64,000 nt of DNA from Victivallales bacterium (lineage in GTDB: Bacteria; Verrucomicrobiota; Lentisphaeria; Victivallales; UBA1829): the NCBI GenBank assembly GCA_045114455.1, contig JBGUKN010000033.1, positions 10,539 to 74,538 on the forward strand. Direction: 5' to 3'. Positions 7,932 to 33,906 of this stretch are shown here, piece by piece. The translations under genes and the position numbers were made by a program. Positions within the stretch are counted from its first letter, which is position 1, and every line of letters starts with the position of its first letter. The notes below the pieces were generated by a model. The model searched no databases. It worked only from the letters and a program-made list of their open reading frames with translations, and was not told the DNA's origin.

Positions 7932-7937
7932 GATGGA

Positions 7938-10178: not shown

Positions 10179-10253
10179 TGGAGCCGGCTCTCGGATTCGA
10201 ACCGAGGACCGACGGTTTACAAAACCGTAGCTCTACCGCTGAGCTAAGCCGGC
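10179..10253 (-). tRNA. tRNA-Thr(UGU)
   Basis: GCCGGCT/AGCCGGC acceptor stem, ACGGT-TTTGTAA-ACCGT anticodon arm, GGTTCGAATCC, encoded CCA. Confidence 0.97.
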
Positions 10254-10471
10254 ATATCGCTTCCCGGGGCCGCGTTCATGCGGCATGACGGACGAGCCCG
10301 GCCATAAAGCGCAAAGCCGTTCGGATCCGAGCCGTATTAATATGGCATATTTTTTTCAAAAGTCAAACACTTTCCCTTTCTTTTTGCTGTTTTCGTGGTA
10401 TAGTAAGATAGTCCGTTTGTCCGGCCCGCCGTGAGCCGGAACCGAAAACATGGAAAGGATGTCCCGTTTTT

Positions 10472-12350: not shown

Positions 12351-12361
12351 AATCCGCAGTC

Positions 12362-13645: not shown

Positions 13646-13893
13646 GTCGGGTTCCGGGAAAGAAAAAGTGTTTCCAGAGGAAGGCTGGCTGCGGAAGTTC
13701 AGGAATAAAACGGGATTGAACTATAATATAGAACTCTGCGCCGGAAAGTCAAGCGGGGGACGGTGCGGACGTCATTCGGCATGTCGTCTTTTCGCTTTTT
13801 TTGCGAATCCGACTTGACAAATCCTTCGGAAACGGCTATCTTATTATTTTCAAAAGGTTTTTACTTCTTAACGATAACGAAACAGGTCTTATT

Positions 13894-14823: not shown

Positions 14824-14847
14824 CCGGTCTTTTTTCCGTTTTTTCAG

Positions 14848-14877
14848 GCGCCGTGCTTCGGTACGGCGCTTTTTTTG
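14848..14877 (+). terminator. Intrinsic terminator
   Basis: GCGCCGTGC-TTCG-GTACGGCGC followed by T run. Confidence 0.85.
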
Positions 14878-15232
14878 TCGGCTTCTGTCTGTCCGGCGAT
14901 CATTCCGCGGATGGCGGCGGGAGCGGCATGGAAAACGACAAAAAAGCCCTCCGTCGCAGCAAAGACGACGAAGGGCAATGTACCGTTATGTCCGCTCCGG
15001 CGCTAATTCAGCGGGCGGAGCGGAACCGGAGCCGGAATCATTCCGGGTTGAAATCGGACTTGGAAACGCCGCAGACGGGGCAGCCCCAGTCTTCCGGGAC
15101 GTCTTCCCAGGCGGTTCCGGGCGCGATTCCGCTGTCGGGATCGCCGACGGCGGGGTCATAGACATAACCGCAGACGCTGCAAACATACTTTTTCATGATG
15201 GAGAATCCTTTCTGGTTTCGAACGTGGTGTGA

Positions 15233-16438
15233 TTATTGAGCGGAGCGCGCGAGAAGCGCGTCGCCGACGGCTTTGCCGAGGGCCGCACACTGGTCAAGCG
15301 CCGCCGCGGTGGGAACGTATTTGACTTTCAGGCCGGGCGCCACGAGTTCGACGCCCGCGCCCTTCAGGTATTCCTCGATCTTCGCGACGGATTCGCCGCT
15401 CCAGCCGAAAGAGCCGAACGCAGCGCCGATCATGTTTTTGGGGCGGAGTCCGCGGAGATAGGTCAGGACGTCCGCCGTGCGTGGATAGAGGTCGTTGTTG
15501 ATGGTGGGGGAGCCGACGACGAGGGCGGAGGCTTTCAGCATGGCGGCCGCGGCGTCGCTGCGCGTGCAGGATGCCAGACAGAGGACCTGGACGCCGCATC
15601 CGGTCTCGCGGATGGCGTCGGCGATCGCAAACGCCATTTTTTCGGTGCTGTGCCACATGGTGTCGTAAAGCACGAGGGCGTTGGGCGTGACCGCCTGTTC
15701 GGCGAATTCCTTGTACCACGCGAACGGAGTGCCCAGCATGTCGACGCGCCACAGCGGACCGTGGTCGGGGGCGATGACAGCGACGTCGAGGCCGAGGCCG
15801 GGGAAGGCTTCGAGGAGCTTCAGGACCTGCGGGGAATACGGCAGAAGGATGTTCGCGTAGTAGCGTTCGGCTTCCTCGCGCATGGTCGGGAGGTCGTTCT
15901 CGTCCGCGAAGATCTTGGCAACTGCATAGTGCATGCCGAAGCCGTCCTGCGAGAAGAGGACGTTGTCGCCGGTGAGGTAGCTGAACATGCTGTCCGGCCA
16001 GTGGAGCATACGGGTCTCGACGAACTTGAGCGAGGATTCGCCGAGTTCGATGGCGTCGCCGCTCTTTACGGGCATGATCTTTCCGGCGAGGTCGTGGAAA
16101 TGGGCTTCGAGCGCCTTCACGCCGAGGGTGGAAGCATAGACTTCGGACGGATTCACGCGGGCGATGGTCTCGGGCAAGGCGCCGGAATGGTCCATTTCGG
16201 CATGGTTGGAGACGATCACATCGATCTTCGAGGGGTCGACGACGGATGCGATACGCTCCATCATCTCGCCGGAGAACGGCGCCTTGACCGTATCGATGAG
16301 CGTGATCTTCCGATCCATGACGAGAAATGCGTTATAGGTGGAACCGCGGCGCGTGGTGTAACCGTGGAACTCCTTGAGCTGCCAGTCGATGGCGCCGACC
16401 CACCAGACTTTGGGGGAAATCCGGATCGCTTTCATCAT
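15233..16438 (-). CDS. fprA: Flavodiiron protein (FprA/ROO type)
   Basis: GSTYNAF, NHAEMDH, HWPDSM, DGFG.H, PDHG, flavodoxin domain YDTMWHSTEKMA. Confidence 0.95.
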   Translation of the reverse strand: MMKAIRISPKVWWVGAIDWQLKEFHGYTTRRGSTYNAFLVMDRKITLIDTVKAPFSGEMMERIASVVDPSKIDVIVSNHAEMDHSGALPETIARVNPSEVYASTLGVKALEAHFHDLAGKIMPVKSGDAIELGESSLKFVETRMLHWPDSMFSYLTGDNVLFSQDGFGMHYAVAKIFADENDLPTMREEAERYYANILLPYSPQVLKLLEAFPGLGLDVAVIAPDHGPLWRVDMLGTPFAWYKEFAEQAVTPNALVLYDTMWHSTEKMAFAIADAIRETGCGVQVLCLASCTRSDAAAAMLKASALVVGSPTINNDLYPRTADVLTYLRGLRPKNMIGAAFGSFGWSGESVAKIEEYLKGAGVELVAPGLKVKYVPTAAALDQCAALGKAVGDALLARSAQ

Positions 16439-16486
16439 AATAGTGCGTGTGTCCTTTCGTGAGGGTATCGTAAAGATTATTTGGGA

Positions 16487-16885
16487 TTACGGGATGGTAA
16501 AGGCCCAGAGGCCGTGGAGATTGCAGTATTCGCGAAGGATGAGGCCGCCGCGGTATTTGACGGGAAACACGGCTTCCGGCGCGTCGCCCGGCTTCAGATA
16601 CTTGCGGAAGACCATGTCGCCGTCGACGACCTCGATCCACTGGATGTAGTGCGCCTCCAGCATCGGATGCGCCACCGCGCCGACCATGACTTTGAGCCAG
16701 TCGCCCTGCGGCTCCGCCACCGGGACATGCTTTTCGCCAGCGCCGTCGGAACGGTTTTCCATCATGCGCGTCAGGCCGCGTCCGCAGCAGGCGAGGATGC
16801 AGTCGTCCCCTTTTTCGCAGGGCTGAAGCGCTTCAAAGACAACGCCGCACTCGGCGCATTTCCAGATCGGATTCGGTTCCTTCAT
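16487..16885 (-). CDS. dfx: Desulfoferrodoxin (superoxide reductase)
   Basis: CAEC…CC desulforedoxin centre, EKHVP, HPM…HYIQWI, CNLHG. Confidence 0.95.
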   Translation of the reverse strand: MKEPNPIWKCAECGVVFEALQPCEKGDDCILACCGRGLTRMMENRSDGAGEKHVPVAEPQGDWLKVMVGAVAHPMLEAHYIQWIEVVDGDMVFRKYLKPGDAPEAVFPVKYRGGLILREYCNLHGLWAFTIP

Positions 16886-16976
16886 CGTGATTCCCCCTCA
16901 TTCTTGCAGGTTCGGCCGTGCCGTTCCGGCCGGCGGTTCCGCCCGGATGACGCACGAGCCTTTCATTCTTCCAATA

Positions 16977-17005
16977 CTGTATCACCTGCGCACGGAAAAT
17001 GCAAG
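16977..17005 (-). promoter_or_regulatory. Promoter of dfx-fprA, TTGCAT-N17-TACAGT
   Basis: Read on minus strand with TG extension. Confidence 0.5.
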
Positions 17006-17030
17006 CCCGCAACGAGGAAAAGCCGGGAAG

Positions 17031-17078
17031 AAAAAACGAAAAAGCCGCCGGGGGAGCGGTGAAACTCCTGCCCGACGG
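17031..17078 (-). terminator. Terminator closing the phage-like operon
   Basis: GCCGTCGGG…CCCGGCGGC stem then TTTTTCGTTTTTT on minus strand, just after the last cluster gene. Confidence 0.75.
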
Positions 17079-17093
17079 CAAAAAGAAAAACCA

Positions 17094-17510
17094 TCAGTCT
17101 CCGTTCGGTCCGGACCCGGAAGCGGTGTCGTCGGACCCCTGCGACAATTCCTGACCGAAGTCGCTCCGGATGAGGGCGGCGGCATCCGTCAGATGGTCGG
17201 CGGTTCCGATGTAGTTGATCGTGACCTCGTGCGAGACCGCGGCGGAATTGAAGATGCCGGGCGAGACCCGCCTGCGGTACTGAAGCGCATAGGTCCCCTC
17301 CGGCGCACTCGCGTAATCCCCGGTGATGACGGTGCTTTTCAGCACGGGCGCGGCCGTATCCGGATCGACGCCGACACGCTGGATGGCAACCGTGCCGCTG
17401 CCGGACAGGGATTTTTCCGCAAGTCCGCCGAGGGCGGAATTGACGCCGGAGCACCCGGAGAACGGAATGATTGCAGCGACAGAAACAAAAATCAAAGAAA
17501 GACGATACAT
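17094..17510 (-). CDS. Predicted lipoprotein (spanin-like position)
   Basis: Signal peptide with lipobox-like FSGC; last gene of operon. Confidence 0.55.
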   Translation of the reverse strand: MYRLSLIFVSVAAIIPFSGCSGVNSALGGLAEKSLSGSGTVAIQRVGVDPDTAAPVLKSTVITGDYASAPEGTYALQYRRRVSPGIFNSAAVSHEVTINYIGTADHLTDAAALIRSDFGQELSQGSDDTASGSGPNGD

Positions 17511-17532
17511 GTTGAACCCTTGAAATTGAATG

Positions 17533-17763
17533 TTATTTGTTGAGCATTTCCTTTGCTCCGGCGAGGACGGCGGCGCAGATTACTCCGATGACAAGCGTGA
17601 TGAAGGCTTTCATAGCCGTTTTCCGTCCAGTTTGAAACGCCTCGGCGAGGGTGCGGAGCGTATCCGCCGTCTTCGCGTCGATCCCGTTCGGACACCCGTG
17701 ATCGTAGGAAGCCAGGATATCGGTGAAGATGGCGGCGATCTCGTTTTTGTCCTGATCCGTCAT
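17533..17763 (-). CDS. Small single-TM protein, holin-like
   Basis: 76 aa from MTDQDK; C-terminal TM AFITLVIGVICAAVLAG; ATGA-type overlap with upstream gene. Confidence 0.45.
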   Translation of the reverse strand: MTDQDKNEIAAIFTDILASYDHGCPNGIDAKTADTLRTLAEAFQTGRKTAMKAFITLVIGVICAAVLAGAKEMLNK

Positions 17764-18149
17764 ATGCGCTTTTTCCCTTCCTTGTAGGCGTTCCAACCGA
17801 ACATCTGACAAATGAGAGCGGCGAGGATCCCGGTCAGCATGCAGACCGGACGGCAATCGTACACGGCCTCAAGCATGACGTTTGCGGCAAGACGGGCATT
17901 CGCATCCGTGAACGACCGGAACGTTTTGTACGGCAGAGAGTATTCCCAGTCGTGAATTTCCGCGGACGCCTCCAGCGGACGGAGCAGACATGAAAGCATG
18001 TGCCGGAACCATGCCGGCCATCGGTCCGGTCCGACGCCGTTGCATGCGGCGGCGAGCTCGTCCCCCGATGCCTGCCAGAACGATTCCGGGGCGAAGGCTC
18101 CGAACTCACGACAGAACGCACGCAGGAATTGAGCACGGGACGGCGTCAT
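17760..18149 (-). CDS. Phospholipase A2-like protein
   Basis: CNGVGP…HDWEY matches the G-x-G loop plus HDxxY catalytic pattern. Confidence 0.5.
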   Translation of the reverse strand: MTPSRAQFLRAFCREFGAFAPESFWQASGDELAAACNGVGPDRWPAWFRHMLSCLLRPLEASAEIHDWEYSLPYKTFRSFTDANARLAANVMLEAVYDCRPVCMLTGILAALICQMFGWNAYKEGKKRI

Positions 18150-18544
18150 CTGTCCGCCGCTCCCTTCACGAGTTCCGCCCAGGTGATTCCGAACCGGAGC
18201 GCGTCCGCCATGAGCTCGACGATCCGGGCGCGGCCCTCCGCGACCACCTCCTCAGACACGCCGCGATCCCGTGCGAACGCGATCAGGTCGGACGAGATGC
18301 CGTTTTGTGCCGCAGCGAGAAACTCGGCGGGCGTGATCCTGTCGGTTTTGCTCGCGAGGTCCGCGATCAGATCGGCAAACGCCGCGCAGATGCGTTCCTG
18401 CGGCGTCGGTTCGCCGTCGTCCGTGATCGCGCCGCCGAGCTGGATAAACAACTCGTCCGTCACGGGCGAAACGATTGATCCATCCGTTAATTTCAGCGGG
18501 TCCGGGCGATGATCGTAAGTTTTTCCGTTGATTGTGTATTCCAT
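18146..18544 (-). CDS. Phage hypothetical protein
   Basis: 132 aa, GGAGG RBS, overlaps next gene. Confidence 0.6.
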   Translation of the reverse strand: MEYTINGKTYDHRPDPLKLTDGSIVSPVTDELFIQLGGAITDDGEPTPQERICAAFADLIADLASKTDRITPAEFLAAAQNGISSDLIAFARDRGVSEEVVAEGRARIVELMADALRFGITWAELVKGAADR

Positions 18545-18564
18545 TGTTCAGTCCTCCTTATGTT

Positions 18565-21500
18565 TCAACCTACTTTGTTGAGCTGCACCAGCGCGCCAGT
18601 CACCGTATAGGTTCCGGTAGAACCGTTGACTGTAGCAGAGCTATAGGTTGTACCATCGTCCGTGGTATAGTACACAAGATAATCAGCCGTGGAATCGAGG
18701 AAAGTTACAGCAGCCCCGTAGACAAAGCCAAGATTGGTGATGGTGGAGCCTTGAATATCTGCGTAGTCGAAAGTATGAATATGGCCGGCACTGTCACGGA
18801 TAACAGTCGGAAGGTCATCACCGCCGCCGACAATATTGATGATTCCGTTCTCCGCATTTGCGATAATCGGAGTGCCAGCGGATGTTCCGGTTAGGTCAAC
18901 AATCGCCCCGCTGGTAATGGTAAGTTCGCCGTCAACGACCTTGGTAATCGGATTGATGTTTGTGCCTGAGAAAACGGCAGTACCACCACCGTTAATGTAA
19001 ATGAAGTACGAACCTTTTGACCCGCCGGGAGGAACGCCTTGAAAGTCGCAGTCTCCAATCGTGCAATGCGCACTGCCGTTAGTGTTCGACCCCATGTAAA
19101 TCGCCAACCCATCCTGCCAGTTGGCGACAGCATTTCCGCTGAACACACAGTTGGAAACGGACGCGGTACATCCGGCAAGATACATAGCTCCTCCTTTGTT
19201 GTTGAGGCAGGTGTTATCGTAAAACGAGCATCCTTCCGCCTCAAACGTGGAGTTATTCAGCTGGACTGCGCCGCCAAAGGAGTTAGCAAGCCCGGAGAAA
19301 ATGGCGCCGCTCACCTTGCCGCCGTAGGGCTGTACCAGTTTGTTCAAATAGTTCGTATTGCTCAAACTTGCAACAGTCAAGTTATCAAGCATATACGCGC
19401 TTGCCTGACCTGCGGACGGATACACGGTCGCGCCGCCGGGAGCAAAGGTGATGCCGCCGCCGGGGTTGATGGGCGTGGTGTTGGTATTGCCAGTCAAATC
19501 AACAACGGCACCGCTGGAGATGCTGACGGCTCCAACAGCACTTTCCCCACCGGACATGATTTTATCAACCCTATTTTCTCCGGTGATAACAACTGTCCCC
19601 CCGGAGGTAACTATATATCCAACCGTACTCCCGCTCATATTGATGGTAGCGTCCGTGAGTCGTATGTCAGTCGTAGAATTACCACTTATGACAGAGTTAT
19701 CAATGTTAAGAACACTACTTCCGCCTGCGTACACCCCGCCACCAAAGGCGCCATAATTAGCGGTTACGATACACTTATCTAACGTGAGTGTACCGCCAGA
19801 ATTGACCGCACCCCCACCACCGTACGCCCCATTCATTCCACTAATCGTGCAGGAAGAAAGGTATACAGTCGCATTAGACGAACGAATACCGCCCGAACCA
19901 CCCGTAAATGTGCAACCGCTCGCATACGCCGTGCCGCCGCCGGAAACTGTGACGTTCGTTCCACCGAGATTCACCACATTCGTATTGCCGATTTGAGGAA
20001 CAGTCATGCCGTCGAGCATGTAAGCCGAAGCGGAACCAGCGGAAGGATACACGTTCGCACCGCCCGGAGCGAAGGTCACGCCGCATCCGGGATTCCACGG
20101 CGTGGCATTTTCATTCCCCGTGAAGTCAATGACTGCGCCGCTCGAAACCGACCACTCCCCACTTGGGGTGCTGTATTTGTCCGTGCGACCTTTATATACA
20201 ATAGTCCCGCCAAACGTAGCACTCGCGTTGGAGTAATTGTAGATATTGGCAATGTTGTCCAAAAATGAGCAGTCAACAATCGCGACTTTTGCGCCGCGTT
20301 TCATGGCGATGTCATTCAACGTGTTTCCGCTGAACGTACAACCGCTTAAAAAGACGGTCGCCTTGCCAGTATCGCAAGCAACTCCTATAGCTCCAATCCT
20401 TGTGGCGGCTGTATTTCCGCTGAACGTGCAGGAGGTGAATTGTGCGGACATTCCATCTGTGAAAAGAAACGCCCCGGACGTTGCTCCGCTCGAACCGCCA
20501 TTCGTAAATGTACAACCTGAGGCAGAACCGTTTTGCATTATGGCGGTCGTTGCACCGAGGTCAACCACGCCGGTTCCGTCTCCCGTGACCTTTTCGACTG
20601 CCAAACCGCCGCCGCTGACCGCAACGTTCTGAACGAACACGTCGCCCAGTGTGAGCGTGCCAGAACTCACAACCACGCCGTTCATGCTGAGGTTGGAGAA
20701 GGTCGTTTTCGATGTGCAGACGATGCCGCCGCTGAGGACGGTTTCCGTGTAGCCGTTGCCGACAACGTGCTTTTCGCCCGCGTAGGTCGTCGCGCCGCCG
20801 AGGTCGAGCGTCTGACCGTTCAAAGAGGCGTCAAAGGCAATGTATTCACTGGAAACATCATGCAGTGCATAGGGGAGCGTTCCGGCTGTGGTCCCGGTCG
20901 CGGATACCACAATGTATCCGTACACATGGTCTTCGACGGAAATGATACATTTCCCGTCGTGGAATCTCAACGTGCAGTTATTCACCGCATCCGGCTCCAG
21001 CGCATCGGCGAGGATGACGTTGGAATCCGTACGGACATACCCCGTTCCCGCGACGAAGAGTTCGATGTGGCCCTCAATACCCCACGTCCCCGTGCTGTCC
21101 TTGAACGCCGCCGTAGTCGCAAGCCACTTGGCAGACGAAGTGACATTGATCTTGTATGCGTTGCCCGGCTCCATAACATAAGCGGAAACGGAAGTCTGGC
21201 TTCCTTCTGGCGTGATGGTTCGCGTGATGATGCTGGAATCCGCAATGATGTTCATGTACCGTTTGCGGTTTACCGTGGTCCCGGAAATCTCCATCAGGTC
21301 GCCCGCGGAGATGTTGTTCTGCTTCGCCGCGAGGGATGCCGAAAGCCCTGTGACAACGCTTTGCGGTACATCGTCCGTGCTGATTACGCCATTGGAAGAG
21401 ATGGAAATGCCCGTTCCTGCGTTGGAGAAATTCAATTTATCCTGTTTCGTATCTGCCGAAGCCGAAACTGCTGCCTGAATAAGACTTTCCGCCTGCGTAC

Positions 21501-22023
21501 GGGTCACGACTTCCTGATCCATCGCGGTCGGATCTCCTAGTCCGCCCACACGGTTCCGAATTGTGAAATTCTCGATCTGAAGCACGAACACGGCATTTCC
21601 CGCGTTGTCGTATCCGACCAGTTCTCCGGTCAGGCCGGAACGCTTTTTTTCATTGCCGATCCATGTTGCGAGTTCCTGCGTGTTCATATTGGAAATCGGG
21701 ATCACGAATTCCGTGAAGTGCAGAGTGCTGCCGTCGAACACACCGTTTGCAGTATGAACCGAGATGCTGTCGGCATCGGCAACCAGTTTGCACGTTGTGT
21801 TTCGGTCAAGGTCATCGTCCATGCGCCATTGCCAATCCACGATGCCGTTGAACGAGTCCATCGGATACGGCGTCGCATCATTCTGGGCGGCGAACAACCT
21901 CATTCGCAAACAGACGGACACTCCGAGCGTCAAAATCGGAGCGGGCCTTTTCCGGGCGTTTGCATAATCCCGCACGCTGCCGAGCGTTTCGTTGGCGACC
22001 GCATAAAAAACAATGTCCTGCAT
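18565..22023 (-). CDS. Tail fibre / receptor-binding adhesin with Pmp-like beta-helix repeats
   Basis: 1152 aa; GGA(V/M), FSGN, FYDN motifs; internal domain repeats; position after tail genes. Confidence 0.7.
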   Translation of the reverse strand: MQDIVFYAVANETLGSVRDYANARKRPAPILTLGVSVCLRMRLFAAQNDATPYPMDSFNGIVDWQWRMDDDLDRNTTCKLVADADSISVHTANGVFDGSTLHFTEFVIPISNMNTQELATWIGNEKKRSGLTGELVGYDNAGNAVFVLQIENFTIRNRVGGLGDPTAMDQEVVTRTQAESLIQAAVSASADTKQDKLNFSNAGTGISISSNGVISTDDVPQSVVTGLSASLAAKQNNISAGDLMEISGTTVNRKRYMNIIADSSIITRTITPEGSQTSVSAYVMEPGNAYKINVTSSAKWLATTAAFKDSTGTWGIEGHIELFVAGTGYVRTDSNVILADALEPDAVNNCTLRFHDGKCIISVEDHVYGYIVVSATGTTAGTLPYALHDVSSEYIAFDASLNGQTLDLGGATTYAGEKHVVGNGYTETVLSGGIVCTSKTTFSNLSMNGVVVSSGTLTLGDVFVQNVAVSGGGLAVEKVTGDGTGVVDLGATTAIMQNGSASGCTFTNGGSSGATSGAFLFTDGMSAQFTSCTFSGNTAATRIGAIGVACDTGKATVFLSGCTFSGNTLNDIAMKRGAKVAIVDCSFLDNIANIYNYSNASATFGGTIVYKGRTDKYSTPSGEWSVSSGAVIDFTGNENATPWNPGCGVTFAPGGANVYPSAGSASAYMLDGMTVPQIGNTNVVNLGGTNVTVSGGGTAYASGCTFTGGSGGIRSSNATVYLSSCTISGMNGAYGGGGAVNSGGTLTLDKCIVTANYGAFGGGVYAGGSSVLNIDNSVISGNSTTDIRLTDATINMSGSTVGYIVTSGGTVVITGENRVDKIMSGGESAVGAVSISSGAVVDLTGNTNTTPINPGGGITFAPGGATVYPSAGQASAYMLDNLTVASLSNTNYLNKLVQPYGGKVSGAIFSGLANSFGGAVQLNNSTFEAEGCSFYDNTCLNNKGGAMYLAGCTASVSNCVFSGNAVANWQDGLAIYMGSNTNGSAHCTIGDCDFQGVPPGGSKGSYFIYINGGGTAVFSGTNINPITKVVDGELTITSGAIVDLTGTSAGTPIIANAENGIINIVGGGDDLPTVIRDSAGHIHTFDYADIQGSTITNLGFVYGAAVTFLDSTADYLVYYTTDDGTTYSSATVNGSTGTYTVTGALVQLNKVG

Positions 22024-22024
22024 A

Positions 22025-23149
22025 TCATTCTCCTTGCTTGAATTTGTAATTTGATTCGTAATCGTAGATGACTTTGATGTTTCGGGCCTGCCAGCCCCGG
22101 ATGTAATCCCCCGGCACAGTATCCGGGCCGCCGATGCCGGACGCCGATCCGTATTCCCATGAAGCGAAGATGCCGTTGGTCAGAGCGAGCGTGTTGCCCC
22201 CGGACGATATGTTCGTACAAAGCGGATCGAAGATGTATGTGTTGAATTCGTCTTCCACCGGATTCCCGTTCTCATCACGTTCCCGGAGATCGACAGCATC
22301 AAAACTGAGCGTTCCGCCGGAAGCCGTCATACACCCATGATAGTCCGGGGTGATTTGCGTGATTTCCCAGGCGGAATGAATCGTCCAGCGTTCGTCGGGG
22401 GCATCCAACCCGGTGTACCAGCATTCCACCCGGCATTCCAGCGGGGTCTCCCACCCGGCAAATCCGGTATCGGAGAGAGTCCAGGACGGAACCGCATCGT
22501 ACGCATCCTGGGGAGATGCGCCAAAACGGTGAAAATCCCCGGGCGATTTGGCATACCGCATCGTGAAGCCGCCGTTGACGACGCGCACATAACGGAGCAG
22601 TTTCAGCATTCTCACCCGCTGTGCGGCCCAGGCGGCACTCAGTTGCACTTGAAGCGTATTGTCGGCATCGATCGTTCCGGAAGCCCCCGAAACAGTGTGC
22701 GGCGCGATCAGGTTTTCCGACAGGGCGGATGCAAGATCTTCGAGCGAACCGTAAACGGAGTTTCCCGTACTGTCCGTGAACTGCCGCGCTCCATACCCCA
22801 TGATTTCGGAATATGACATCAGCGTTTGGAGGAGAAATGCGTCGAACATGTGCATGAACGAAAGGTTTCGGTCGTATCCCCAAATCTCGTCGTAGGCATA
22901 TTCTTTTTTGATCTTCCGGAACGGGACTTTTCGCGGATCGGCGGCATTATACCATTCCCCGTTTAAGATATGTGCCAGACTGTTCCCGATCACAGCTGCA
23001 GAACCGGACGACATACAGCTCGAGTGAAACTCGGAATCCACAGCTTCCCGGCGTTCGCAGAGCGCGGAAACCAGCCCGCGCATCACAGGCAGGGGCGTAC
23101 AGAACGTCGGATCGTTCAGATGATAGTCGTCCCAGCCCATCAGATCCAT
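22025..23149 (-). CDS. Putative tail/baseplate protein
   Basis: 374 aa, coupled to neighbours; function from position only. Confidence 0.5.
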   Translation of the reverse strand: MDLMGWDDYHLNDPTFCTPLPVMRGLVSALCERREAVDSEFHSSCMSSGSAAVIGNSLAHILNGEWYNAADPRKVPFRKIKKEYAYDEIWGYDRNLSFMHMFDAFLLQTLMSYSEIMGYGARQFTDSTGNSVYGSLEDLASALSENLIAPHTVSGASGTIDADNTLQVQLSAAWAAQRVRMLKLLRYVRVVNGGFTMRYAKSPGDFHRFGASPQDAYDAVPSWTLSDTGFAGWETPLECRVECWYTGLDAPDERWTIHSAWEITQITPDYHGCMTASGGTLSFDAVDLRERDENGNPVEDEFNTYIFDPLCTNISSGGNTLALTNGIFASWEYGSASGIGGPDTVPGDYIRGWQARNIKVIYDYESNYKFKQGE

Positions 23150-23712
23150 CTCCCGCAGATTTCAATATCTCCGCTCAGATGCAGCTGCGTCACGGTCCCG
23201 TCCGGGTTTATATGCGCCAGTTTCCTGTACCATCCCTGATCCCCTGTGACCGCTTCGGACAGCGTCGTCGAAAAACCGTATGCCAATGCGGGAGTCACGG
23301 CCGATGCATCGTAATGCACGGTCAGATAAATGTCCTCGGCAGTTCCCGGACTGACCGGAAGCATTCCGGCAGGCATATTGCGGCAGCTGTTTCCGATTCG
23401 GATTTCGCCGGCATACTCTCCCCCGGGGATCGCGGCATTGTAAATCCGTGCGGAAGTCCCGCCGACAAGCTTCACTGCGAACGCCCCGGCATATTCGGAA
23501 GAAACGACCGGCTCGGACGGCGCCGCACCCTCCGTTCCCGGATCAGGACCGTTCCACCGGATCAGCTTGCCGGCTCCCGTATCGACAACATCCAGGAGCG
23601 GGGTGGCGGATGCAAGTTTGTCAAGCTGATCCACAGCTTCGGCCAGCGCATTGAATTTTTCCCGGAGGACCTCGAAAAGGTTTTCGCCGGGTTCCAGTTT
23701 CGGTGTGTTCAT
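23140..23712 (-). CDS. Putative tail protein
   Basis: 190 aa from MNTPKL (ATGA overlap at 23709-23712); position only. Confidence 0.5.
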   Translation of the reverse strand: MNTPKLEPGENLFEVLREKFNALAEAVDQLDKLASATPLLDVVDTGAGKLIRWNGPDPGTEGAAPSEPVVSSEYAGAFAVKLVGGTSARIYNAAIPGGEYAGEIRIGNSCRNMPAGMLPVSPGTAEDIYLTVHYDASAVTPALAYGFSTTLSEAVTGDQGWYRKLAHINPDGTVTQLHLSGDIEICGRWI

Positions 23713-24491
23713 GCGCCGTCCTCCCCGGTCGTTTCGTACAGCGTGCTGTTCCATCCGGCCGGAGCGGGAGACGCCTTGTAAACGACCTTCGCGATGTAGC
23801 GGCGTCCATCCGGATGGATCTGGCCCCCGAGGTTCAGCCAGTTCGTCGCGCCTACGCCGAAATCGCCGAGCGCCGGCTCGCAAATCTTTCCGGCGCATGC
23901 GGCCGCCGCCCAGGACGCGTCCCGCATGGTGCAATGCCGGCTGAACTCCGTGATGGTATAGCTTGGCATCAGCCACGTTTCGCAGTTCATGACCGGCATT
24001 TTCAGCAGATGCCACGACTCTCCGAGCGAGGAGACGGACTGCGGGGATTTCACCCAGCGGTAACTTGCATGTTGAGCCGTCGTCAGAATGGGATCCGTCG
24101 CCGTCGCCCACCATGCCGGAGTCTCATCCGTCCCTTTGGCCGCGAGACAGTAATTCCAGTTCGTACGGTAATCGGGGTGGCGTTCCAACGGTACGGCAAT
24201 GACGGTCACGTCCAGCGTGTGCTCCTTCGGGCCATGTCCTCCGATCAGGAAACGCAAATTGCTCCCCGTGCTCAGATTTTCCCATGCGAGTTCGATTTCG
24301 TAAACGGGACCGCCGATTTGGCGGGTACGCCAGGACACCAGTTCGTATTCGCCCGTCTGGTCCTGGTCGCCGATTGTCAGCTCGGCGCTCCGCTCCTCGA
24401 CTTCATCACGCGTCCCGTAGTAGATTTCGCGGTAGGTGGTCCCGCCGGAATTCGTGCTCCGGACGACGCTTTTATGTTTCAGTTTCAGCAT
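23709..24491 (-). CDS. Putative distal tail/hub protein
   Basis: 260 aa, GGAGAGG RBS, beta-rich; position only. Confidence 0.5.
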   Translation of the reverse strand: MLKLKHKSVVRSTNSGGTTYREIYYGTRDEVEERSAELTIGDQDQTGEYELVSWRTRQIGGPVYEIELAWENLSTGSNLRFLIGGHGPKEHTLDVTVIAVPLERHPDYRTNWNYCLAAKGTDETPAWWATATDPILTTAQHASYRWVKSPQSVSSLGESWHLLKMPVMNCETWLMPSYTITEFSRHCTMRDASWAAAACAGKICEPALGDFGVGATNWLNLGGQIHPDGRRYIAKVVYKASPAPAGWNSTLYETTGEDGA

Positions 24492-24505
24492 ATTCCTCTC
24501 CTGTC

Positions 24506-24652
24506 TCAGTCGATCTTTCCGATTTCCTCGATTTTCTCCGCGATTTCGTCGAGTTCGGCGTTGATCTGCCTCAGTATTTCCATGATGATTTCCGTCTCAG
24601 GATCATACTCGTCCTGTTTCGTCTTTTCCGCAATTCCCGATTCCCCGTTCAT
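24506..24652 (-). CDS. 48-aa acidic coiled-coil peptide at the tape-measure position
   Basis: MNGESG…EILRQINAELDEIAEKIEEIGKID, GGGAGAG RBS. Confidence 0.4.
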   Translation of the reverse strand: MNGESGIAEKTKQDEYDPETEIIMEILRQINAELDEIAEKIEEIGKID

Positions 24653-24707
24653 CTCTCTCTCCCGTTGCTTTTTGTTTTGAACCGTTTCCCGTGCACCGCG
24701 CATGCAG

Positions 24708-25040
24708 TCACAGACTCGACACTTCGGCTTCGTCGCTGTGCTCCGCACGCACGGCAAAGCGTTGGAACTTTCCTTTTTCCGCGGTCAGGGTCGCCGACGT
24801 GATCAGGAAGGTCCTTCCCTGATAAGTCAGCGTTTCACCCGCTTCCGGGATGTTGCCGCCCTCCACAAGCCCGTCGAAATCGATCTCCGTGCGGCGGCTT
24901 GCAGCGGCGAGGCTGCCCTTTGTGCCGTCCTCCCCGTAAACGGATACGGTCCCGGTCAGCGTCGAGCGTACGCGGATATTCCTCATGGCGATGTCGAAGC
25001 CGCCTCCGTCCCAGCCGGAAATCAAACCCAGTGCGCGCAT
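24708..25040 (-). CDS. Putative small tail tube protein
   Basis: 110 aa, beta-rich, PEAGETLT…ITS pattern, 1 bp after gp36. Confidence 0.4.
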   Translation of the reverse strand: MRALGLISGWDGGGFDIAMRNIRVRSTLTGTVSVYGEDGTKGSLAAASRRTEIDFDGLVEGGNIPEAGETLTYQGRTFLITSATLTAEKGKFQRFAVRAEHSDEAEVSSL

Positions 25041-25041
25041 G

Positions 25042-25461
25042 TCAGTATCCCTTCATCGTTTCACGGGAGAAGACCGGCTCGTCGCAGGCGACCGTTGAAA
25101 TACCCTGCCCGCGCGCGGACTCCGCGGCGCCGGGCAGGACCAGTTCGCCGGATGCGGTCTTTTCGAGGGATTCGCGCACATGGACGACGCGCATCTTGAG
25201 TTTGTCGGGCAGAGTGTCGCCCGCGCAACGTACACGGGCGCGCTCTTCGCACAGGGTCAGGTTCCAGTCGCTGAGCAGCGCTCCGGCGCGTTCGGAAACG
25301 ACCGGCGTTTCGTAACGGCATCCGGCTGCCGCGTCGATTTCAGCCGCGGCGGCCTCCAGGTCGGCCTGCGCCGCCGCCGTCCCGGCTTCGTCGTTGCCGT
25401 ATAGTCCCGCGTAATCCTGGCCGAGACGCACTTTCAGTTCATTGATCGTGGCATATGGCAT
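25042..25461 (-). CDS. Mu gp36-like head-tail adaptor (DUF1320)
   Basis: YATINELKVRLG…AAAEID…RYETP…LEKTASGELVL. Confidence 0.85.
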   Translation of the reverse strand: MPYATINELKVRLGQDYAGLYGNDEAGTAAAQADLEAAAAEIDAAAGCRYETPVVSERAGALLSDWNLTLCEERARVRCAGDTLPDKLKMRVVHVRESLEKTASGELVLPGAAESARGQGISTVACDEPVFSRETMKGY

Positions 25462-25670
25462 GAAAAGATCCTTTCATTTCATTGTTGTAGAGAAGCGCCA
25501 AAGGCGGAAACGGCCGGATACGACGAGGAAAGGAGGGCGGACAACCCGTGCGGCGGTGGCTGTCTGCCGCAGCATACGGGCGCCCCGCCTCCGTGCCAAG
25601 GAGATGATTCTCACGGCGGATCATCCGCCCTCCCCGTCCTCTGTCCGTCAGCCGTTTACACCGCAGCCGG

Positions 25671-26573
25671 TCAGGCCGCGGCGGTTCCGCCACGTCCCAG
25701 CAGATGCGGGAAGAGCGCGGCGGCGTTGCCGTAGGCTTCGGCTCCGAAGAGGATCCTGCCGTCCATGAAGACGTTTTCGTCGTTCGGCTGGTTCAGGATC
25801 GTGAGGGTGGCTTCCTTGTTCTTCAGGACCAGGATGGGCTTCAACGCGCCGGTGAAACGCCCCAGGAACCAGTAGTTGGCGTTCGTTCCGGTCAGGCGCG
25901 GGCTGACGACCAGTTTGACCTTGTCCTTATGCGGATTCGCGAATTCCTGGTCGTTGCTGTCGCGGTAGGTGTCGGAGTACAGGATTTCGCGGGCGGTGTC
26001 TTCCAGCGCAGGGCCGACGATCAGGTGCGTCGGACGGGTGTTGACGGGCTGGCCGTTGTGGCCGCGGAACGAGTACATCTGGGTGAAGAACGAGCCGAAG
26101 TTGGCGAACGTCAGGGCATTGGTCGTGACGTTGTTGATCGTGCTCGGGCCGTACTTGCGGCTGCTGTTGTAGAAGCTGGCGCCGTCGATCCAGTTCGGCG
26201 GATTCACCAGGGCTTCGGTGAAGAGGGTGTCCCACAGCTGTTCGCCCGCCTCGCCCATCGCGGCGACAAGCGTGCCGTAGATGCCCCAGTTGTCGGTCTC
26301 CACGTCGCGGACGGGGATCGCCACGGTGTCCTCCCAGGGACGTTCCACGAGGCGGATTTTGTGCGTGGCGAGATTCTTGATCTGGCGCGGGCCGAGCCAT
26401 TCGCGCATTCCTGCGAAGGCGTCGAGGAACGGGATTTCCATGGCGGTGTGCTTCGGATCGCCCTCGATGTCGGCGAGTTCGCGGTAGATCGTCTCCGCGC
26501 CCTCGACCGCCTGTTTGAACTTCAGGTTGAAGCTGGTGCGCATGGCAGACAGCGTTTCATGGTTGAGTTCCAT
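25671..26573 (-). CDS. Mu-like major capsid protein gpT
   Basis: MREWLGPRQIKNL, WEDTVAI..RDVETDNWGIY, PTHLIVGPALEDTA, NPHK…SPRL. Confidence 0.92.
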   Translation of the reverse strand: MELNHETLSAMRTSFNLKFKQAVEGAETIYRELADIEGDPKHTAMEIPFLDAFAGMREWLGPRQIKNLATHKIRLVERPWEDTVAIPVRDVETDNWGIYGTLVAAMGEAGEQLWDTLFTEALVNPPNWIDGASFYNSSRKYGPSTINNVTTNALTFANFGSFFTQMYSFRGHNGQPVNTRPTHLIVGPALEDTAREILYSDTYRDSNDQEFANPHKDKVKLVVSPRLTGTNANYWFLGRFTGALKPILVLKNKEATLTILNQPNDENVFMDGRILFGAEAYGNAAALFPHLLGRGGTAAA

Positions 26574-26630
26574 CTTTATTTTCCTTTTTCATCGTTGAAT
26601 TGTTTGAAATGAACACCCGGAAAACCGGGT

Positions 26631-27041
26631 TCAGCGCGGGCCGTTGCCGATTTCCGCCACCACGCCGTCCGAAAGAACGTCGCGGACAACGCCCGCGACC
26701 ACGGCCGCAGTGCCGCCGGTCATCGTGACCGTCTGGTCATCCTTCACGTAGCAGGTCTTGTTCAGGTCGCTGAGGGTGACCGCGCCGCTGCTGACCGGAC
26801 TGTAGAGGAACATGCCGGAACGGGTCCTGACAGTTTCGCCGCCGGACGCGGTGTTTTCGGCACGGCCGACCACGGTAATGGCCCCGGAGGACGTGGCGGG
26901 GATGGCTTTCCCGCTGGAATTGACGGCGGTAATGCCGCCCGCGTAGACGGTGCTGCCCGCTGCGACGGTGAATTCACGCGTGTAGCGGATGCCGCCGGCC
27001 GCGATTTCACGGGTGTCTCTGGCTTCTGTGAGTGCTGACAT
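26631..27041 (-). CDS. Capsid cement/decoration protein
   Basis: MSALTEARDT, YAGG, VVGRAE, CYVKDDQTV, as in Mu-like phages between protease and capsid. Confidence 0.8.
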   Translation of the reverse strand: MSALTEARDTREIAAGGIRYTREFTVAAGSTVYAGGITAVNSSGKAIPATSSGAITVVGRAENTASGGETVRTRSGMFLYSPVSSGAVTLSDLNKTCYVKDDQTVTMTGGTAAVVAGVVRDVLSDGVVAEIGNGPR

Positions 27042-27087
27042 GGTTGATGTCTCCTTCTTTGTGAGTGTTTTGCGCCGCGTCGCTTCT

Positions 27088-28152
27088 TCAGCTTCGCATG
27101 GCGCGTTGATATTCGTTCTTGTCGAATCCGAATTTCCGGATCATTTCCTCGTCCGCCGGGGTCAGGCTCCGCACGGTCGTATGACGTTTGTCCGGGGAAA
27201 ACGTCATGCGGCCCGGCACCACGGCGGGAGCGTGCTCCAGGTAGGACGCCAGCACGGCGCAGTCCTGGTTTTTCGCCCAGCCTTCCAGCGCGTGCGTCAG
27301 TTTTCCCTCCTGAAGCCCCCGTTCGATCAGTTCGGCTTTGCGTTTTTCCTCGGCGGCACAGGCCAGTGCGTCGAGTTCGTGCCGCAGGGCATCCGCCTGC
27401 CCGGCCTGTTCCTTCACGGCGGCCAAGGCGGCGGGCATGGCTTCATCGGGTTCGCCCTCAGCCATGCCCAATCCTTCGCGCATGGCGGCAATGGCGTCGG
27501 CTTTCGCCTCGATTGCGGCCGCAGTCCGTTCGAAGGCGTTTTCCGCGTCGTTCTCGCCGGACAGCACGATCTCGTTCCAGAGATCGTTCCCGAGCAGACG
27601 CCCGAGTGCGCGTTCGATCGGGTCTTGAAGCCGCTTCAGTTCGATTGCGTTTCGCGCGATGTCCTCCGGGTCGGAGTCCTCGCCGCCCGCGGCCAGAACA
27701 TCTTCGCAGTTCAGCGCGGGCTCGTTCTCCATCGCCACGCTGGTGATGCGGATCGGGCCTTCCTTCAGGCCTCGGATGACCGGCGAACAGTACCGGAAGA
27801 TCTTTTCCTTCAGCAGTTCGTATGCGCCCGGCATCCATTCCGCCCGGATCCGAAGTTCGTTTCCGTCACGGAACAGCGTCCCGAAGCCCATTGCGGCCAC
27901 GCCCGACGGGATCAGCCGCAGCGCCTCGCTTTCCTCCACGCCGTGTTTTTCCGCCAGAATGTGGAGATAGTGATTGGAGTCGATCGGGATCGCCTCGCCC
28001 TTCTTCGCCTGATACGCCGCGATGGCATCCAGGTCTTCCACACTCAGATGCAGTTCATAGTCCTTTCCGTTTTTCACGAGCCTGTTCACGCCCGCATGCA
28101 GCAGAGTCCATTCCTCCGGGACTCCGTTCGCGTCCTGTCTTACCGTTCCCAT
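27088..28152 (-). CDS. Mu-like prohead protease I / scaffold
   Basis: IPIDSNH, AEW, RYCSPV, TSVAMENEPAL, helical scaffold C-terminus. Confidence 0.9.
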   Translation of the reverse strand: MGTVRQDANGVPEEWTLLHAGVNRLVKNGKDYELHLSVEDLDAIAAYQAKKGEAIPIDSNHYLHILAEKHGVEESEALRLIPSGVAAMGFGTLFRDGNELRIRAEWMPGAYELLKEKIFRYCSPVIRGLKEGPIRITSVAMENEPALNCEDVLAAGGEDSDPEDIARNAIELKRLQDPIERALGRLLGNDLWNEIVLSGENDAENAFERTAAAIEAKADAIAAMREGLGMAEGEPDEAMPAALAAVKEQAGQADALRHELDALACAAEEKRKAELIERGLQEGKLTHALEGWAKNQDCAVLASYLEHAPAVVPGRMTFSPDKRHTTVRSLTPADEEMIRKFGFDKNEYQRAMRS

Positions 28153-28237
28153 TTCCTGCTCCTATTTTGGGTTTGTCTGATTCCCGCGCGGGTTCGATCC
28201 GTTCCGCCGGGCATATCGAATTCATTTTTCAGTGTGT

Positions 28238-29632
28238 TTACCAGCCCCAGCCGAAGACTCTTTCCTCGATGCGCCGTTCATGGGGCGACGGCAGCGGGTC
28301 GATCCCGCACGGTGTTTCGTTTCCGCGACCCGCCGCGTGGACTGCCAGCGCAAGCGCCCAGAACCGATCCGAATGTCCGTATTCGTCGCGTTCCGCGTCG
28401 TACCGGACGTTTCCGGCTGCAGTCACGCTCCGCACGATCTTATGAAGGTCGTGCCGCAGCACATCGTCGGCCAGGATCCTGATGCCCCGCGACTCGAACG
28501 CCGCGCGGACCGGCATAGCCAGCGCGGCTTTCACGGGGCCGGTGAACGTCACGCTTTCCACGCGGTACTTTCCGTGCCGTTCCTGCATCTCCTCCGCCAG
28601 CATCATCCCGATCCCGGTCGCATCGATGCAGAGCCGGTCCAGCCGTGCGTCGTCGAGGCGGCGCGCCAGCGCGTCGGCCTGCATGCGGAACGGCATGTCC
28701 TCCATGACTTCATACCCGCTCTGCCACAGGATGTCCCCGATGCGCGTGAGCTCGAAGTATACCGCGACGTCCTTCTTCCGTCCCACGTCGTATCCGGCAT
28801 AGCGGACGGCTTTCGGATGCTCGCACAGGGCTTTTTCCAAGTCCGCGGCATCGTTTTCGCACGCGCCGATCATGCCGTAGTCCAGCAGCGCCGCGCCCGC
28901 CTCCGACGTCTCGATCAGATACTGCGTCCGCCAGGCGTCTTCCGTGCGGCATTTCGCCCGCATCAGCTTCAGCCATTCTTCCCGGCTCAAGGCGCATCCG
29001 GTCATCTCATTGACACGTTCCACGAATCCCTCTTCCACGGCGTCCAGGATGCTCGTCCGATGAACGCTCCACCCCATCGCGTTCGCGCCGTGTTCCGCCT
29101 CATGAAGCATCCGGCAGAACGGCGATTCGCTGCTCCCGTCCACGCTCAGCGCCGACACCATTTCCAGCTGGCCGCCCCAGGTGGTGCATGGCAGCGCCAT
29201 GTCGATCACCCGTCCGCTGTCCTTGTGCAGATCGGCTTCGTCGATCAGGATGTCTCCGCCTTTCCCGGCGAACGCCTCGGGCGTGCTGGACAGGCTGACG
29301 ACCCGGCTTCCGTTCCCGTATTCCGCCGTGTAGGCGCGGATTCCGCGCAAAGGATCGATGACTGCGGCGTCTTCTCCGGCGAGTCCGCGGCATACCGCGT
29401 TGGACGCCGCAGCCCATTTCGCGATGTAATCCGTGATGAATTCGCGGGCGGTGAACTCGTCGCGGCTGGTGACCCACTGCACCGTCCCGGGCCGCCGCAG
29501 ACACTTGTCGTTCACGCGGAAACTCGTGGCATACGTGATGCCGATCCGCCGTGACTTCGCGTACAGCTTCATCCGGGCGTCGTCCAGGATCCACCGCCTT
29601 TGGTACGGCAGAAAATATTCTGACAGCTTCAT
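28238..29632 (-). CDS. Mu gp28-like terminase large subunit
   Basis: FLPYQRRW, KSRRIGIT, ILIDEAD, GYDVGRKKD, GHSDRFWALALA; start MKLSEY with GGAGG RBS. Confidence 0.93.
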   Translation of the reverse strand: MKLSEYFLPYQRRWILDDARMKLYAKSRRIGITYATSFRVNDKCLRRPGTVQWVTSRDEFTAREFITDYIAKWAAASNAVCRGLAGEDAAVIDPLRGIRAYTAEYGNGSRVVSLSSTPEAFAGKGGDILIDEADLHKDSGRVIDMALPCTTWGGQLEMVSALSVDGSSESPFCRMLHEAEHGANAMGWSVHRTSILDAVEEGFVERVNEMTGCALSREEWLKLMRAKCRTEDAWRTQYLIETSEAGAALLDYGMIGACENDAADLEKALCEHPKAVRYAGYDVGRKKDVAVYFELTRIGDILWQSGYEVMEDMPFRMQADALARRLDDARLDRLCIDATGIGMMLAEEMQERHGKYRVESVTFTGPVKAALAMPVRAAFESRGIRILADDVLRHDLHKIVRSVTAAGNVRYDAERDEYGHSDRFWALALAVHAAGRGNETPCGIDPLPSPHERRIEERVFGWGW

Positions 29633-30045
29633 CGTTCCTCCGTCTCCACAGCAAAGCAATCAATCCGGTTCATGTAAAAAAAAAGAATCCGTGCGGACGA
29701 CGCCACAACGTCATCCATCTCCATTTCCCTGCGGCACAACATCTTTCATCCCCCGTCTTTCCGAGGCTTTCTCCGGATCTTCCCTGCTGCGGGAAATCAT
29801 TCTTCCGGCTCCGGCGACGCCGCACGGACTCTTCAACAAAAACGGGATTCTTCGCACTTTCGGACTTTCGAAATCCATAACTGCATATGGTTTCTATCGG
29901 TTGTGTTCGACACGCAATGGTTCGCCGTTCGTTCCCGCCTGTCGGCGCGGACGTTTTTTCCGTCTTGAAAATCATCCGGTTTGGAGCTATATTAATTCTT
30001 CTTATTCGCATTCGCGTTTTACTGTACTACCGAAGATTTCTCCTT

Positions 30046-31032: not shown

Positions 31033-33906
<2,874 letters not shown>

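Follow-up and report, generated by a model that had tools for sequence, protein, structure and literature searches.

A handful of independent gene transfer agents (GTAs) are known, and to our knowledge all were found through their phenotypes, with neither a Mu-like ancestor nor a Lentisphaerota host among them. The best-known type, RcGTA, is encoded by a chromosomal, phage-derived head-tail operon of 12-17 kb that lacks replication, integration and lysogeny genes, sits at the same locus across species and evolves under purifying selection; it originated from an HK97-like siphophage and retains the small terminase (TerS), the portal, the tail tube and the tape measure in its main cluster. The genes of RcGTA are nevertheless spread over several loci (PMC5026251). 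Here we describe a 15-gene cluster of Mu-like virion genes at positions 17094-29632, on the minus strand, of a 64-kb stretch of contig JBGUKN010000033.1 (hereafter the window, meaning this whole stretch), which belongs to a metagenome-assembled genome (MAG) of a rumen Victivallales bacterium (Lentisphaerota). A second point of reference is the domesticated defective prophage, reportedly described by Bobay et al. in 2014 as conserved under purifying selection: such elements share with our cluster an orthologous position in several species, the loss of autonomy and a ratio of nonsynonymous to synonymous substitution rates (dN/dS) well below 1. Our search of the literature returned no work on prophages or gene transfer agents in either Lentisphaerae or Victivallales.

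We lean towards reading this cluster as a domesticated, GTA-like module that would make a short-tailed, DNA-packaging particle whose portal is supplied in trans. Its 15 open reading frames (ORFs) span ~12.5 kb, share one orientation, are all intact and in many cases overlap the next gene by a few bases (ATGA at g12/g13 and g08/g09, for instance), so that the ORF calls, together with intact frames in relatives, bear out a first-pass annotation of the DNA that had described co-oriented, mostly overlapping genes free of frameshifts. All 15 are structural, packaging or small accessory genes, and host genes adjoin them at both ends. Pfam and PHROGs identify five of them (the large terminase TerL, the gpI protease, g03, the gpT capsid and gp36), among them the Mu-type head genes gp28-like TerL, gpI, gpT and gp36 (PF17289, PF10123, PF10124, PF07030); no match was found in Pfam, PHROGs or NCBIfam for g06-g10 or g12-g15. 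No integrase, repressor or transposase was found in the cluster or the 64-kb window, whose other scanned genes are ordinary host genes, and the Mu early region (repressor, transposase A/B, Gam) has no counterpart in the cluster, which is flanked by host genes. The locus is thus, like a GTA, a chromosomal structural cluster devoid of replication, integration and lysogeny genes, with its structural genes under purifying selection.

What the cluster lacks is best seen beside its complete relatives, which come from Lentisphaeria MAGs and from metagenomes of gut and rumen (L009-L011, L027, L028, L030, L034, L037, L049, L050, L052). In these, the gene order runs from a TerS-like gene through TerL, a DUF935 portal, a ~180-aa gene, gpF, the protease and a decoration protein to the capsid, gp36, a 130-143-aa gene, a homologue of g06, a 240-255-aa gene, a 550-790-aa gene with a weak tape-measure match, a homologue of g08 and more tail genes. 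One of them, L050, carries a Gam-like early gene, so the complete relatives are true Mu-like phages. Seven of these families are absent from our cluster: the TerS-like, portal, ~180-aa, gpF, 130-143-aa, 240-255-aa and 550-790-aa genes. None of the seven turned up by tblastn in the window or any related reduced locus, with the portal, gpF and TerS of the relatives among the queries; a portal hidden Markov model (HMM) built from 120 homologues detected control portals at E<=4e-168 and had a best score of E=4.4 across the six-frame translation of the window and 22 reduced loci; and iterated profiles for the six other missing families found none in the window and the reduced loci (best E 0.07), and no fragments. 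The earlier claim that portal, small terminase, gpF and tape measure are gone without leftover pieces was thereby upheld. Hence the pairing of DUF935 portal and gpF beside TerL that marks a Mu-like prophage is absent, as are, from the cluster, the window and 22 related loci, the portal and TerS that would make up a full GTA head and packaging set. That the missing modules might adjoin as the other half of a split prophage was also checked, and neither the 64-kb window nor any of the distinct host contexts seen contains them.

The cluster is held in common by many species. When a single genome for each GTDB species was scanned with capsid-derived patterns, 25 loci emerged, each in a Victivallales/Lentisphaeria MAG apart from one weak Rhodospirillales match; all of the genomes are MAGs or metagenome contigs, and ~10 kb on each side of a locus was read. 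The capsid protein is 97-98% identical to that of the window in 13 GTDB species representatives, mostly rumen MAGs, and the cluster also occurs on rumen metagenome contigs. The first-pass annotation had asked whether the same gene set sits at the same site in relatives, and mostly it does: both host flanks are common to eight of the 13 genomes (blastn) and one flank to three more, with the other side cut by the contig end in L017 and L018 and rearranged on the TerL side in L020, which keeps the dfx-side flank. The contig of L015 is too short for any flank, and L022 has a different host context, beside ribosomal protein genes. Nucleotide identity is ~80-86% in cluster and flanks alike. Core ORFs are all intact and nearly constant in length, at 461-475 aa for TerL, 354-356 aa for the protease (with one 335-aa call), 300 aa for the capsid, 137-139 aa for gp36, 110-112 aa for g06 and 260-262 aa for g08.

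Purifying selection acts on every gene. Using the Nei-Gojobori method, with medians over pairs from up to 14 genomes, we obtained dN/dS values of 0.05-0.33 across all 15 genes, without stops or frameshifts, similar to the host flank genes at 0.02-0.24 (Table 1). Synonymous divergence (dS) was 0.29-0.52 for head genes, 0.26-0.36 for host flanks and 0.6-1.6 for tail genes. An out-of-frame ORF that overlaps g08 gave a dN/dS of 1.14 and serves as an internal negative control. The cluster therefore shows the combination known from domesticated defective prophages, namely orthologous insertion in several species, intact ORFs and dN/dS well below 1; the signs of decay named by the first-pass annotation (strain-specific occurrence, dN/dS near 1, accumulating stops) were looked for and did not appear, and its view that the clean losses fit selection for a reduced particle better than random decay gains support from the conservation, the intact frames and the low dN/dS. 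Within the locus, identity to L017 and L023 jumps from ~79-81% (protease onward) to 88.5-90% (TerL through uvrA) at window positions 28178-28247, and L025 also breaks at the gap between TerL and protease, with little change in identity (89.0% versus 90.0%). These breakpoints indicate homologous recombination between species.

Deeper portal-less clusters lie at other host sites, after a glycoside hydrolase family 127 (GH127) gene in L001 and between alaS and pgi in L003-L005 and L024. In neighbour-joining trees of capsid, TerL, gp36 and g08, which carry no support values, the reduced clusters group together in a single clade that excludes the complete phages, which points to a single origin. 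The four reduced lineages (window type, L022, L001 and L003/L024) come from different host contexts, and the simplest history would be one old reduction followed by long retention; within the clade, identity falls to 65% for TerL and to 45-53% for g08. One deep branch has a modified head region: at 8805-9971 of L003/L004/L005/L024 the protease is a 178-aa protein consisting of the N-terminal domain, followed by a 196-aa protein with the g03 homologue as its C-terminal part, and the scaffold region of these loci thus seems rearranged or fused.

A sister cluster of ~17 kb, found in Victivallaceae MAGs (L006/L029, positions 3300-20300; L032; L035), extends this picture. Its order is TerS, TerL, a 406-aa DUF935 portal, protease, decoration protein, capsid, gp36 and tail genes, and it retains the genes between gp36 and g08 and lacks gpF and the early genes. 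Host flanks are common to three GTDB species (L006/L029, L032, L035) at 82-84% identity, and dN/dS is 0.02-0.23, with the portal as the most constrained gene (0.02-0.04). The sister cluster therefore resembles that of the window in its phage family, its host locus common to three species, its low dN/dS and its missing gpF and early genes, and differs from it in its larger size and in keeping TerS, the DUF935 portal and the genes from gp36 to g08. We regard it as a further candidate for a domesticated or GTA-like element. Because it bears the same signature and yet branches apart from the window type in the capsid tree, beside a complete Victivallis phage, domestication of this Mu-like phage family seems to have happened at least twice.

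How a particle might be built can be proposed from the genes alone, and from them we infer particle formation, a short tail, DNA packaging and a trans-acting portal. In the scenario that we favour, a Mu-like transposable siphophage of Victivallales would have been domesticated anciently, pared down to one 15-gene operon and kept by selection. The gpI protease/scaffold would mature a gpT capsid that bears g03 as its decoration; gp36 and g06 would form a neck, and g07-g10 a stubby tail without the ancestral tube and tape measure; a fast-evolving beta-helix tailspike would bind cell-surface glycans; four small membrane or accessory proteins might serve in release; and TerL would package DNA as in a gene transfer agent. 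An unlinked chromosomal gene could supply the portal, or else a related Mu-like phage infecting the host. The stubby tail is suggested by the retained set itself, which comprises head, neck, tail tip and spike without tube or tape measure, and because all catalytic motifs of TerL are kept under strong constraint, DNA is probably packaged. Further, since the portal is the docking site of TerL and the binding partner of gp36, and selection constrains these two proteins strongly, a portal is to be expected from outside the cluster.

Table 1. Features of the cluster, its leader and its host flanks in the window; dN/dS values are medians over genome pairs.
Feature	Position	Strand	Basis	dN/dS
Large terminase (TerL), 464 aa, ATG at 29632, ribosome-binding site GGAGGA	28238-29632	minus	Terminase_6C (PF17289) 9e-12; phrog_2, phrog_5909	0.08
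Mu gpI-type head maturation protease/scaffold, 354 aa	27088-28152	minus	PF10123 8e-23, nearly full length; phrog_328	0.125
g03, virion structural (decoration/cement-like) protein, 136 aa	26631-27041	minus	phrog_1731 2e-23	0.24
Major capsid protein, Mu gpT family, 300 aa	25671-26573	minus	PF10124 3e-40; phrog_371	0.05
gp36-type head-tail adaptor, 139 aa	25042-25461	minus	PF07030; phrog_195 head-tail adaptor	0.13
g06, neck/tail protein, fold unassigned, 110 aa	24708-25040	minus	homology to complete relatives	0.13
g07, acidic helical peptide, 48 aa	24506-24652	minus	conserved in 14 genomes	0.21
g08, tail-tip protein, distal-tail/tube-like predicted fold, 260 aa	23709-24491	minus	homologues, AlphaFold2 model	0.13
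g09, tail protein, start MNTPKLEPG, 190 aa	23140-23712	minus		0.18
g10, tail protein, 374 aa	22025-23149	minus		0.20
g11, tailspike or fibre, right-handed beta-helix, 1152 aa	18565-22023	minus	PF13229 3e-14	0.26
g12, protein without family match, 132 aa	18146-18544	minus	orthologues in 11 genomes	0.33
g13, 129 aa	17760-18149	minus	homologue at end of L006-type cluster (1e-15)	0.18
g14, C-terminal transmembrane helix, 76 aa	17533-17763	minus	read from sequence	0.28
g15, putative lipoprotein (signal peptide + FSGC lipobox), 138 aa	17094-17510	minus	read from sequence; orthologues in 10 genomes	0.27
Terminator-like hairpin, cluster 3' end just before dfx promoter region	17045-17059	minus	consensus scan only	
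Conserved structured RNA leader, ~160 nt, ends ~45-60 nt upstream of TerL start	29680-29839	minus	covariance model	
Desulfoferrodoxin (dfx)	16487-16885		Pfam	0.16
Flavodiiron protein, beyond dfx				0.055
Multi-transmembrane protein between UvrA and TerL, 373 aa	29887-31008		no Pfam match	0.24
UvrA	31033-33906		Pfam	0.024

Across species, TerL is 92-94% identical, and its motifs (Walker-A-like KSRRIGIT, Walker B LIDEAD, and nuclease GYDVGRKKD, DATGIG and GHSDRFW) are in place; alignment with terminases from complete, portal-bearing relatives showed the ATPase and nuclease motif columns to be invariant, and the protease likewise conserves its His motif, IPIDSNHYLH, both as the first-pass annotation had read them. 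Homologues of g03 lie between the protease and capsid genes in every complete relative. The capsid gene has a third-codon-position GC content of 0.87, the same as host genes, and an exact look-up of the window's capsid protein found none on record.

Beyond the adaptor, g06 matches the second gene after gp36 of complete relatives (138 aa in L037, E 7e-20), upstream of the 240-255-aa putative tube, and had no Pfam or PDB match, including in a profile-versus-PDB sequence search. The 48-aa ORF noted earlier between a supposed tail tube and the distal tail genes stands, as g07, with its C-terminal 30 residues nearly invariant in the 14 genomes, and the naming of the preceding g06 as that tube is not borne out, given the position of its match. 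We considered g07 as a remnant of the tape measure and rejected this: its best matches lie inside 551-627-aa tape-measure-like proteins of complete relatives and are non-significant (E about 0.1-1). In every complete relative a homologue of g08 comes after the long tape-measure-like gene, and the AlphaFold2 model of g08 (predicted local distance difference test score, pLDDT, 84) matches uncharacterized tailed-phage proteins in Foldseek at E 3e-13 and, weakly, SPP1 Dit, the baseplates of phages 80alpha and JBD30, an RcGTA chain, tube proteins and baseplate-hub proteins; a g08 profile searched against PDB sequences gave no match. Because of these structural matches and this position, g08 is likely a distal-tail protein. 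One metagenome protein of 648 aa (P0234, on a 2.6-kb European Nucleotide Archive contig) joins residues 1-182 of a g08 orthologue to a CarboxypepD_reg and Por_Secre_tail (type IX secretion system) protein, and its contig is most likely chimeric.

In complete relatives another gene comes after g08, and a profile of it matches the orthologues of g09 in L001/L003/L024 (E 2e-4 to 6e-3). A 324-aa ORF at 23140-24114 had been taken as the gene here; we rejected it in favour of the 190-aa version starting at 23712, since the upstream extension over g08 is the out-of-frame control with dN/dS 1.14 and hence non-coding. The extension (23713-24114, minus strand) is open in all species, for a total of 322-326 codons, and is an artefact of a stop-poor alternative frame in GC-rich DNA. 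g10 belongs to a tiny family, with 26 relatives among 1.84 billion representatives, and its N-terminal 180 aa are common to proteins of 750-830 aa; its AlphaFold2 model is weak (pLDDT 59), with a helical N-terminus and a beta-sandwich C-terminus, and Foldseek against PDB gave no match and none that was portal-like. The tailspike, g11, conserves ~240 N-terminal residues, and the remainder is hypervariable across species (44-56% identity, 730-1152 aa, GC 0.53-0.55). This variability and lower GC would fit exchange of receptor-binding modules, and a variable spike on a conserved N-terminal anchor is the pattern that a cell-binding particle would be expected to show.

Of the last genes, g13 has in common with a DUF1353 protein at the same position in L003 the HDW.Y motif alone, and, from this single short motif, may possibly be related to DUF1353. 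g14, whose length as first given is corrected to 76 aa (17533-17763), has orthologous ORFs down to 231 nt and appears holin-like from its transmembrane helix.

Phages that could supply a portal are linked to these hosts. The MAG with reduced cluster L014 also contains, judging by the locus-tag prefix J6Y92, an L037-type phage with a 591-aa portal, and a contig that encodes portal P0141 belongs to the L020 assembly (JAFXYP01). On the latter contigs (L054 6990-9140 / L055 1-1830), an array of clustered regularly interspaced short palindromic repeats (CRISPR), with repeat GTTTCAATTCACTCCCGCGCGTGAGGCGGGAG and spacers of 32-34 nt, runs into a Mu-like phage genome in mid-TerL, at a spacer/protospacer. 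This junction is an assembly chimera; the truncated TerL beside P0141 is thus an artefact of assembly, and the contig proves targeting by the host, not lysogeny. A spacer of the array agrees with the phage L040 TerL at 32/33 bases, and a further spacer is 28/32 identical to g14 from the reduced cluster of this assembly. Related Mu-like phages evidently infect these hosts. Measured against helper-dependent elements, the cluster lacks portal, TerS and gpF, and two carrier genomes have a link to related complete phages, in one case by way of the chimeric CRISPR-phage contig.

Several results weigh against a GTA-like particle with a portal in trans. No portal was found at the loci searched, and portal homologues P0139, P0118, P0154, P0116, P0115 and P0141 all (6/6) lie in phage head-gene modules beside a terminase, never alone. 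The host CRISPR array targets related Mu-like phages, which are thus enemies and not tame helpers. A second locus might have been tagged by the leader RNA that precedes TerL (described below), and a covariance search of all loci and a motif scan of Joint Genome Institute (JGI) metagenomes found none. No endolysin was recognized among the cluster proteins (Pfam, PHROG, NCBIfam), which leaves release unexplained. Finally, pairwise distances of cluster and flank are similar in size yet uncorrelated (Mantel r=0.11, p=0.39; 7 taxa, a narrow distance range, recombination), and strict co-divergence is thus not demonstrated.

Among the alternatives, the one that takes most from these results, although we consider it unlikely, is a helper-dependent parasite or defence element that is silent until a Mu-like phage infects and then exploits, or competes for, that phage's portal, TerS and gpF, diverting assembly into its own small capsids or poisoning it, in the manner of phage-inducible chromosomal islands (PICIs) and PICI-like elements (PLEs), but chromosomally fixed. 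TerS, portal and gpF, the missing functions, are precisely what the related phages of these hosts encode beside TerL, two cluster-bearing genomes have phages of this kind linked to them, a host CRISPR array targets such phages, and the spacer 28/32 identical to g14 suggests that active phages carry close relatives of cluster genes. Yet the co-occurrence is in two genomes only, one of which rests on the chimeric contig, and the locus is fixed, unlike known satellites, with no integrase, attachment (att) site or presence/absence polymorphism. Interference would need no adaptor, tail-tip proteins or diversifying tailspike and no catalytically intact TerL under selection, and co-assembly is uncertain given that the capsid and scaffold are just 43-57% identical to those of the phages. 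Use of the parts without any portal we hold to be quite improbable: closed capsids could act as nanocompartments or decoys, the tail and spike as, for example, adhesins, and TerL in another nuclease or ATPase role. In its favour, HK97-fold capsid proteins can assemble without a portal, and no portal lies in cis in any of five contexts. However, the portal-docking gp36 and a TerL with all packaging motifs are both constrained, at the dN/dS of Table 1, the head, neck and tail genes have stayed in one operon over deep divergence, and no cargo-like gene is present.

An unrecognizable portal might instead hide in the cluster itself, with g10 (374 aa) as the sole candidate of fitting size, since g10 and g09-g13 lack a Pfam, PHROG or NCBIfam family and the g10 family is so small. 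We give this very little weight: the g10 model, low as its confidence is, has a beta-sandwich C-terminus and no PDB portal match, its N-terminus is shared with much longer proteins, as with fibre or baseplate anchors, the gene sits in the tail-tip module, and homologues of g08 and g09 occur in phages that already encode a DUF935 portal. The least credible of the alternatives, to which we give almost no credence, is a functionless prophage remnant in decay. The absence of genes essential to an autonomous phage is what such a remnant would show, but none of the 15 genes is broken in up to 14 genomes, their dN/dS is 0.05-0.33 at dS 0.3-1.6, conservation of the capsid equals that of the flavodiiron protein and comes close to that of UvrA, and the layout persists where TerL is 65% identical; recent horizontal copies of one active element, which could also look intact, are argued against by the matching divergence of the flanks. 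Plain decay is excluded.

Upstream of TerL, the operon carries a structured leader RNA with a 15-16-bp outer stem closing inner hairpins. In its alignment, 94.7% of cells are paired and six compensatory pairs occur, versus 2.0+-1.0 in shuffles (0/500), and G-U pairs occur on the sense strand only. Covariance matches fall upstream of this TerL only, in 11 genomes and 7 rumen metagenome contigs; there was no match in Rfam, and the leader is absent from the deeper reduced clusters and the complete phages. The leader could act as a control element, riboswitch-like or of the antitermination type, and is the one lead towards regulation of the operon by the host. A 209-nt non-coding gap (25462-25670) separates the capsid gene and gp36 at all orthologous loci, contains a sigma-70-like match (25599-25571) and could set the ratio of capsid to tail expression.

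As for the borders, the 85-bp spacing of TerL and protease reported earlier is exact (28153-28237), and the dfx gene and terminator placed on one side are confirmed by Pfam and by a hairpin, respectively; the supposed transporter on the other side is a multi-transmembrane protein without a Pfam match. From the presence of dfx and the ~60% GC, we considered whether the cluster might be the unidentified Dd1 gene transfer agent of Desulfovibrio desulfuricans, and rejected this, as its relatives are all rumen Victivallales/Lentisphaeria. Elsewhere in the window, a tRNA gene (43618-43691) is followed by a lower-GC stretch (0.46-0.55; 43618-51000 in all) that encodes a BspA-type leucine-rich-repeat protein, a TerB-DnaJ protein, a GH5 cellulase and a double solute-binding protein, without phage genes, and may be an acquired island. 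A second tRNA lies at 10182-10253.

Taken at sequence level, the locus has the marks of domestication, co-divergence apart, and it comes from abundant uncultured rumen bacteria. It poses a puzzle in that terminase, portal-binding adaptor and capsid have long been under strong selection without a linked portal, which points either to a particle system split over multiple loci or to a chromosomally fixed element living off the portals of infecting phages. If either is true, it would widen the range of ways in which bacteria reuse phage parts and would matter for phage defence and gene flow in the rumen microbiome. The portal-bearing sister cluster and the window cluster form a natural experiment, given that the portal, where kept in cis, is very strongly constrained. 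More tentatively, and with doubts that exceed our confidence, we suggest that this may be the first GTA-like system of the Planctomycetes-Verrucomicrobia-Chlamydiae (PVC) superphylum (Lentisphaerota), Mu-derived, short-tailed and built from 15 genes, with its portal encoded separately or borrowed from phages and with a second, portal-containing version in a sister lineage as a product of recurrent domestication.

Among described systems, RcGTA-type agents and conserved defective prophages come closest to the cluster. In gene order (TerL-gpI-gpT-gp36) it agrees with Mu-like siphophages, including the Pseudomonas D3112/B3/JBD30 group, RcapMu and the uncultured Lentisphaeria phages L009-L011, L037 and L050, and it shares the tail-tip gene g08 with the Lentisphaeria phages; the capsid protein of the cultured phages is, however, only ~30% identical to that of the window, and the cluster lacks their TerS, DUF935 portal, gpF, three tail-region genes and early genes (Gam, repressor, transposase). 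Tailocins, which are tails only, differ in that capsid, protease and TerL are the most conserved genes here, and encapsulin nanocompartments, which combine an HK97 shell with cargo and have no terminase or tail, differ in that the cluster has a constrained TerL, an adaptor, tail-tip genes and a tailspike. Capsid-forming satellites (capsid-forming PICIs, or cf-PICIs, P4 and PLE) likewise have an incomplete virion set that a helper phage could complete, but they carry an integrase, excise, move and are variably present, and cf-PICIs encode a portal and have no tails, whereas our cluster is fixed in place, with tail genes, no portal and no integrase in the cluster or its flanks. Relative to domesticated defective prophages, it is a complete and coherent structural operon instead of a set of scattered survivors, its layout has held over deep divergence, and the one gene on which the retained proteins depend is absent. 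Relative to RcGTA, the cluster, known here from its genes alone, is of Mu-like origin, lacks all four of the small terminase, portal, tube and tape measure, and resides in a Lentisphaerota host.

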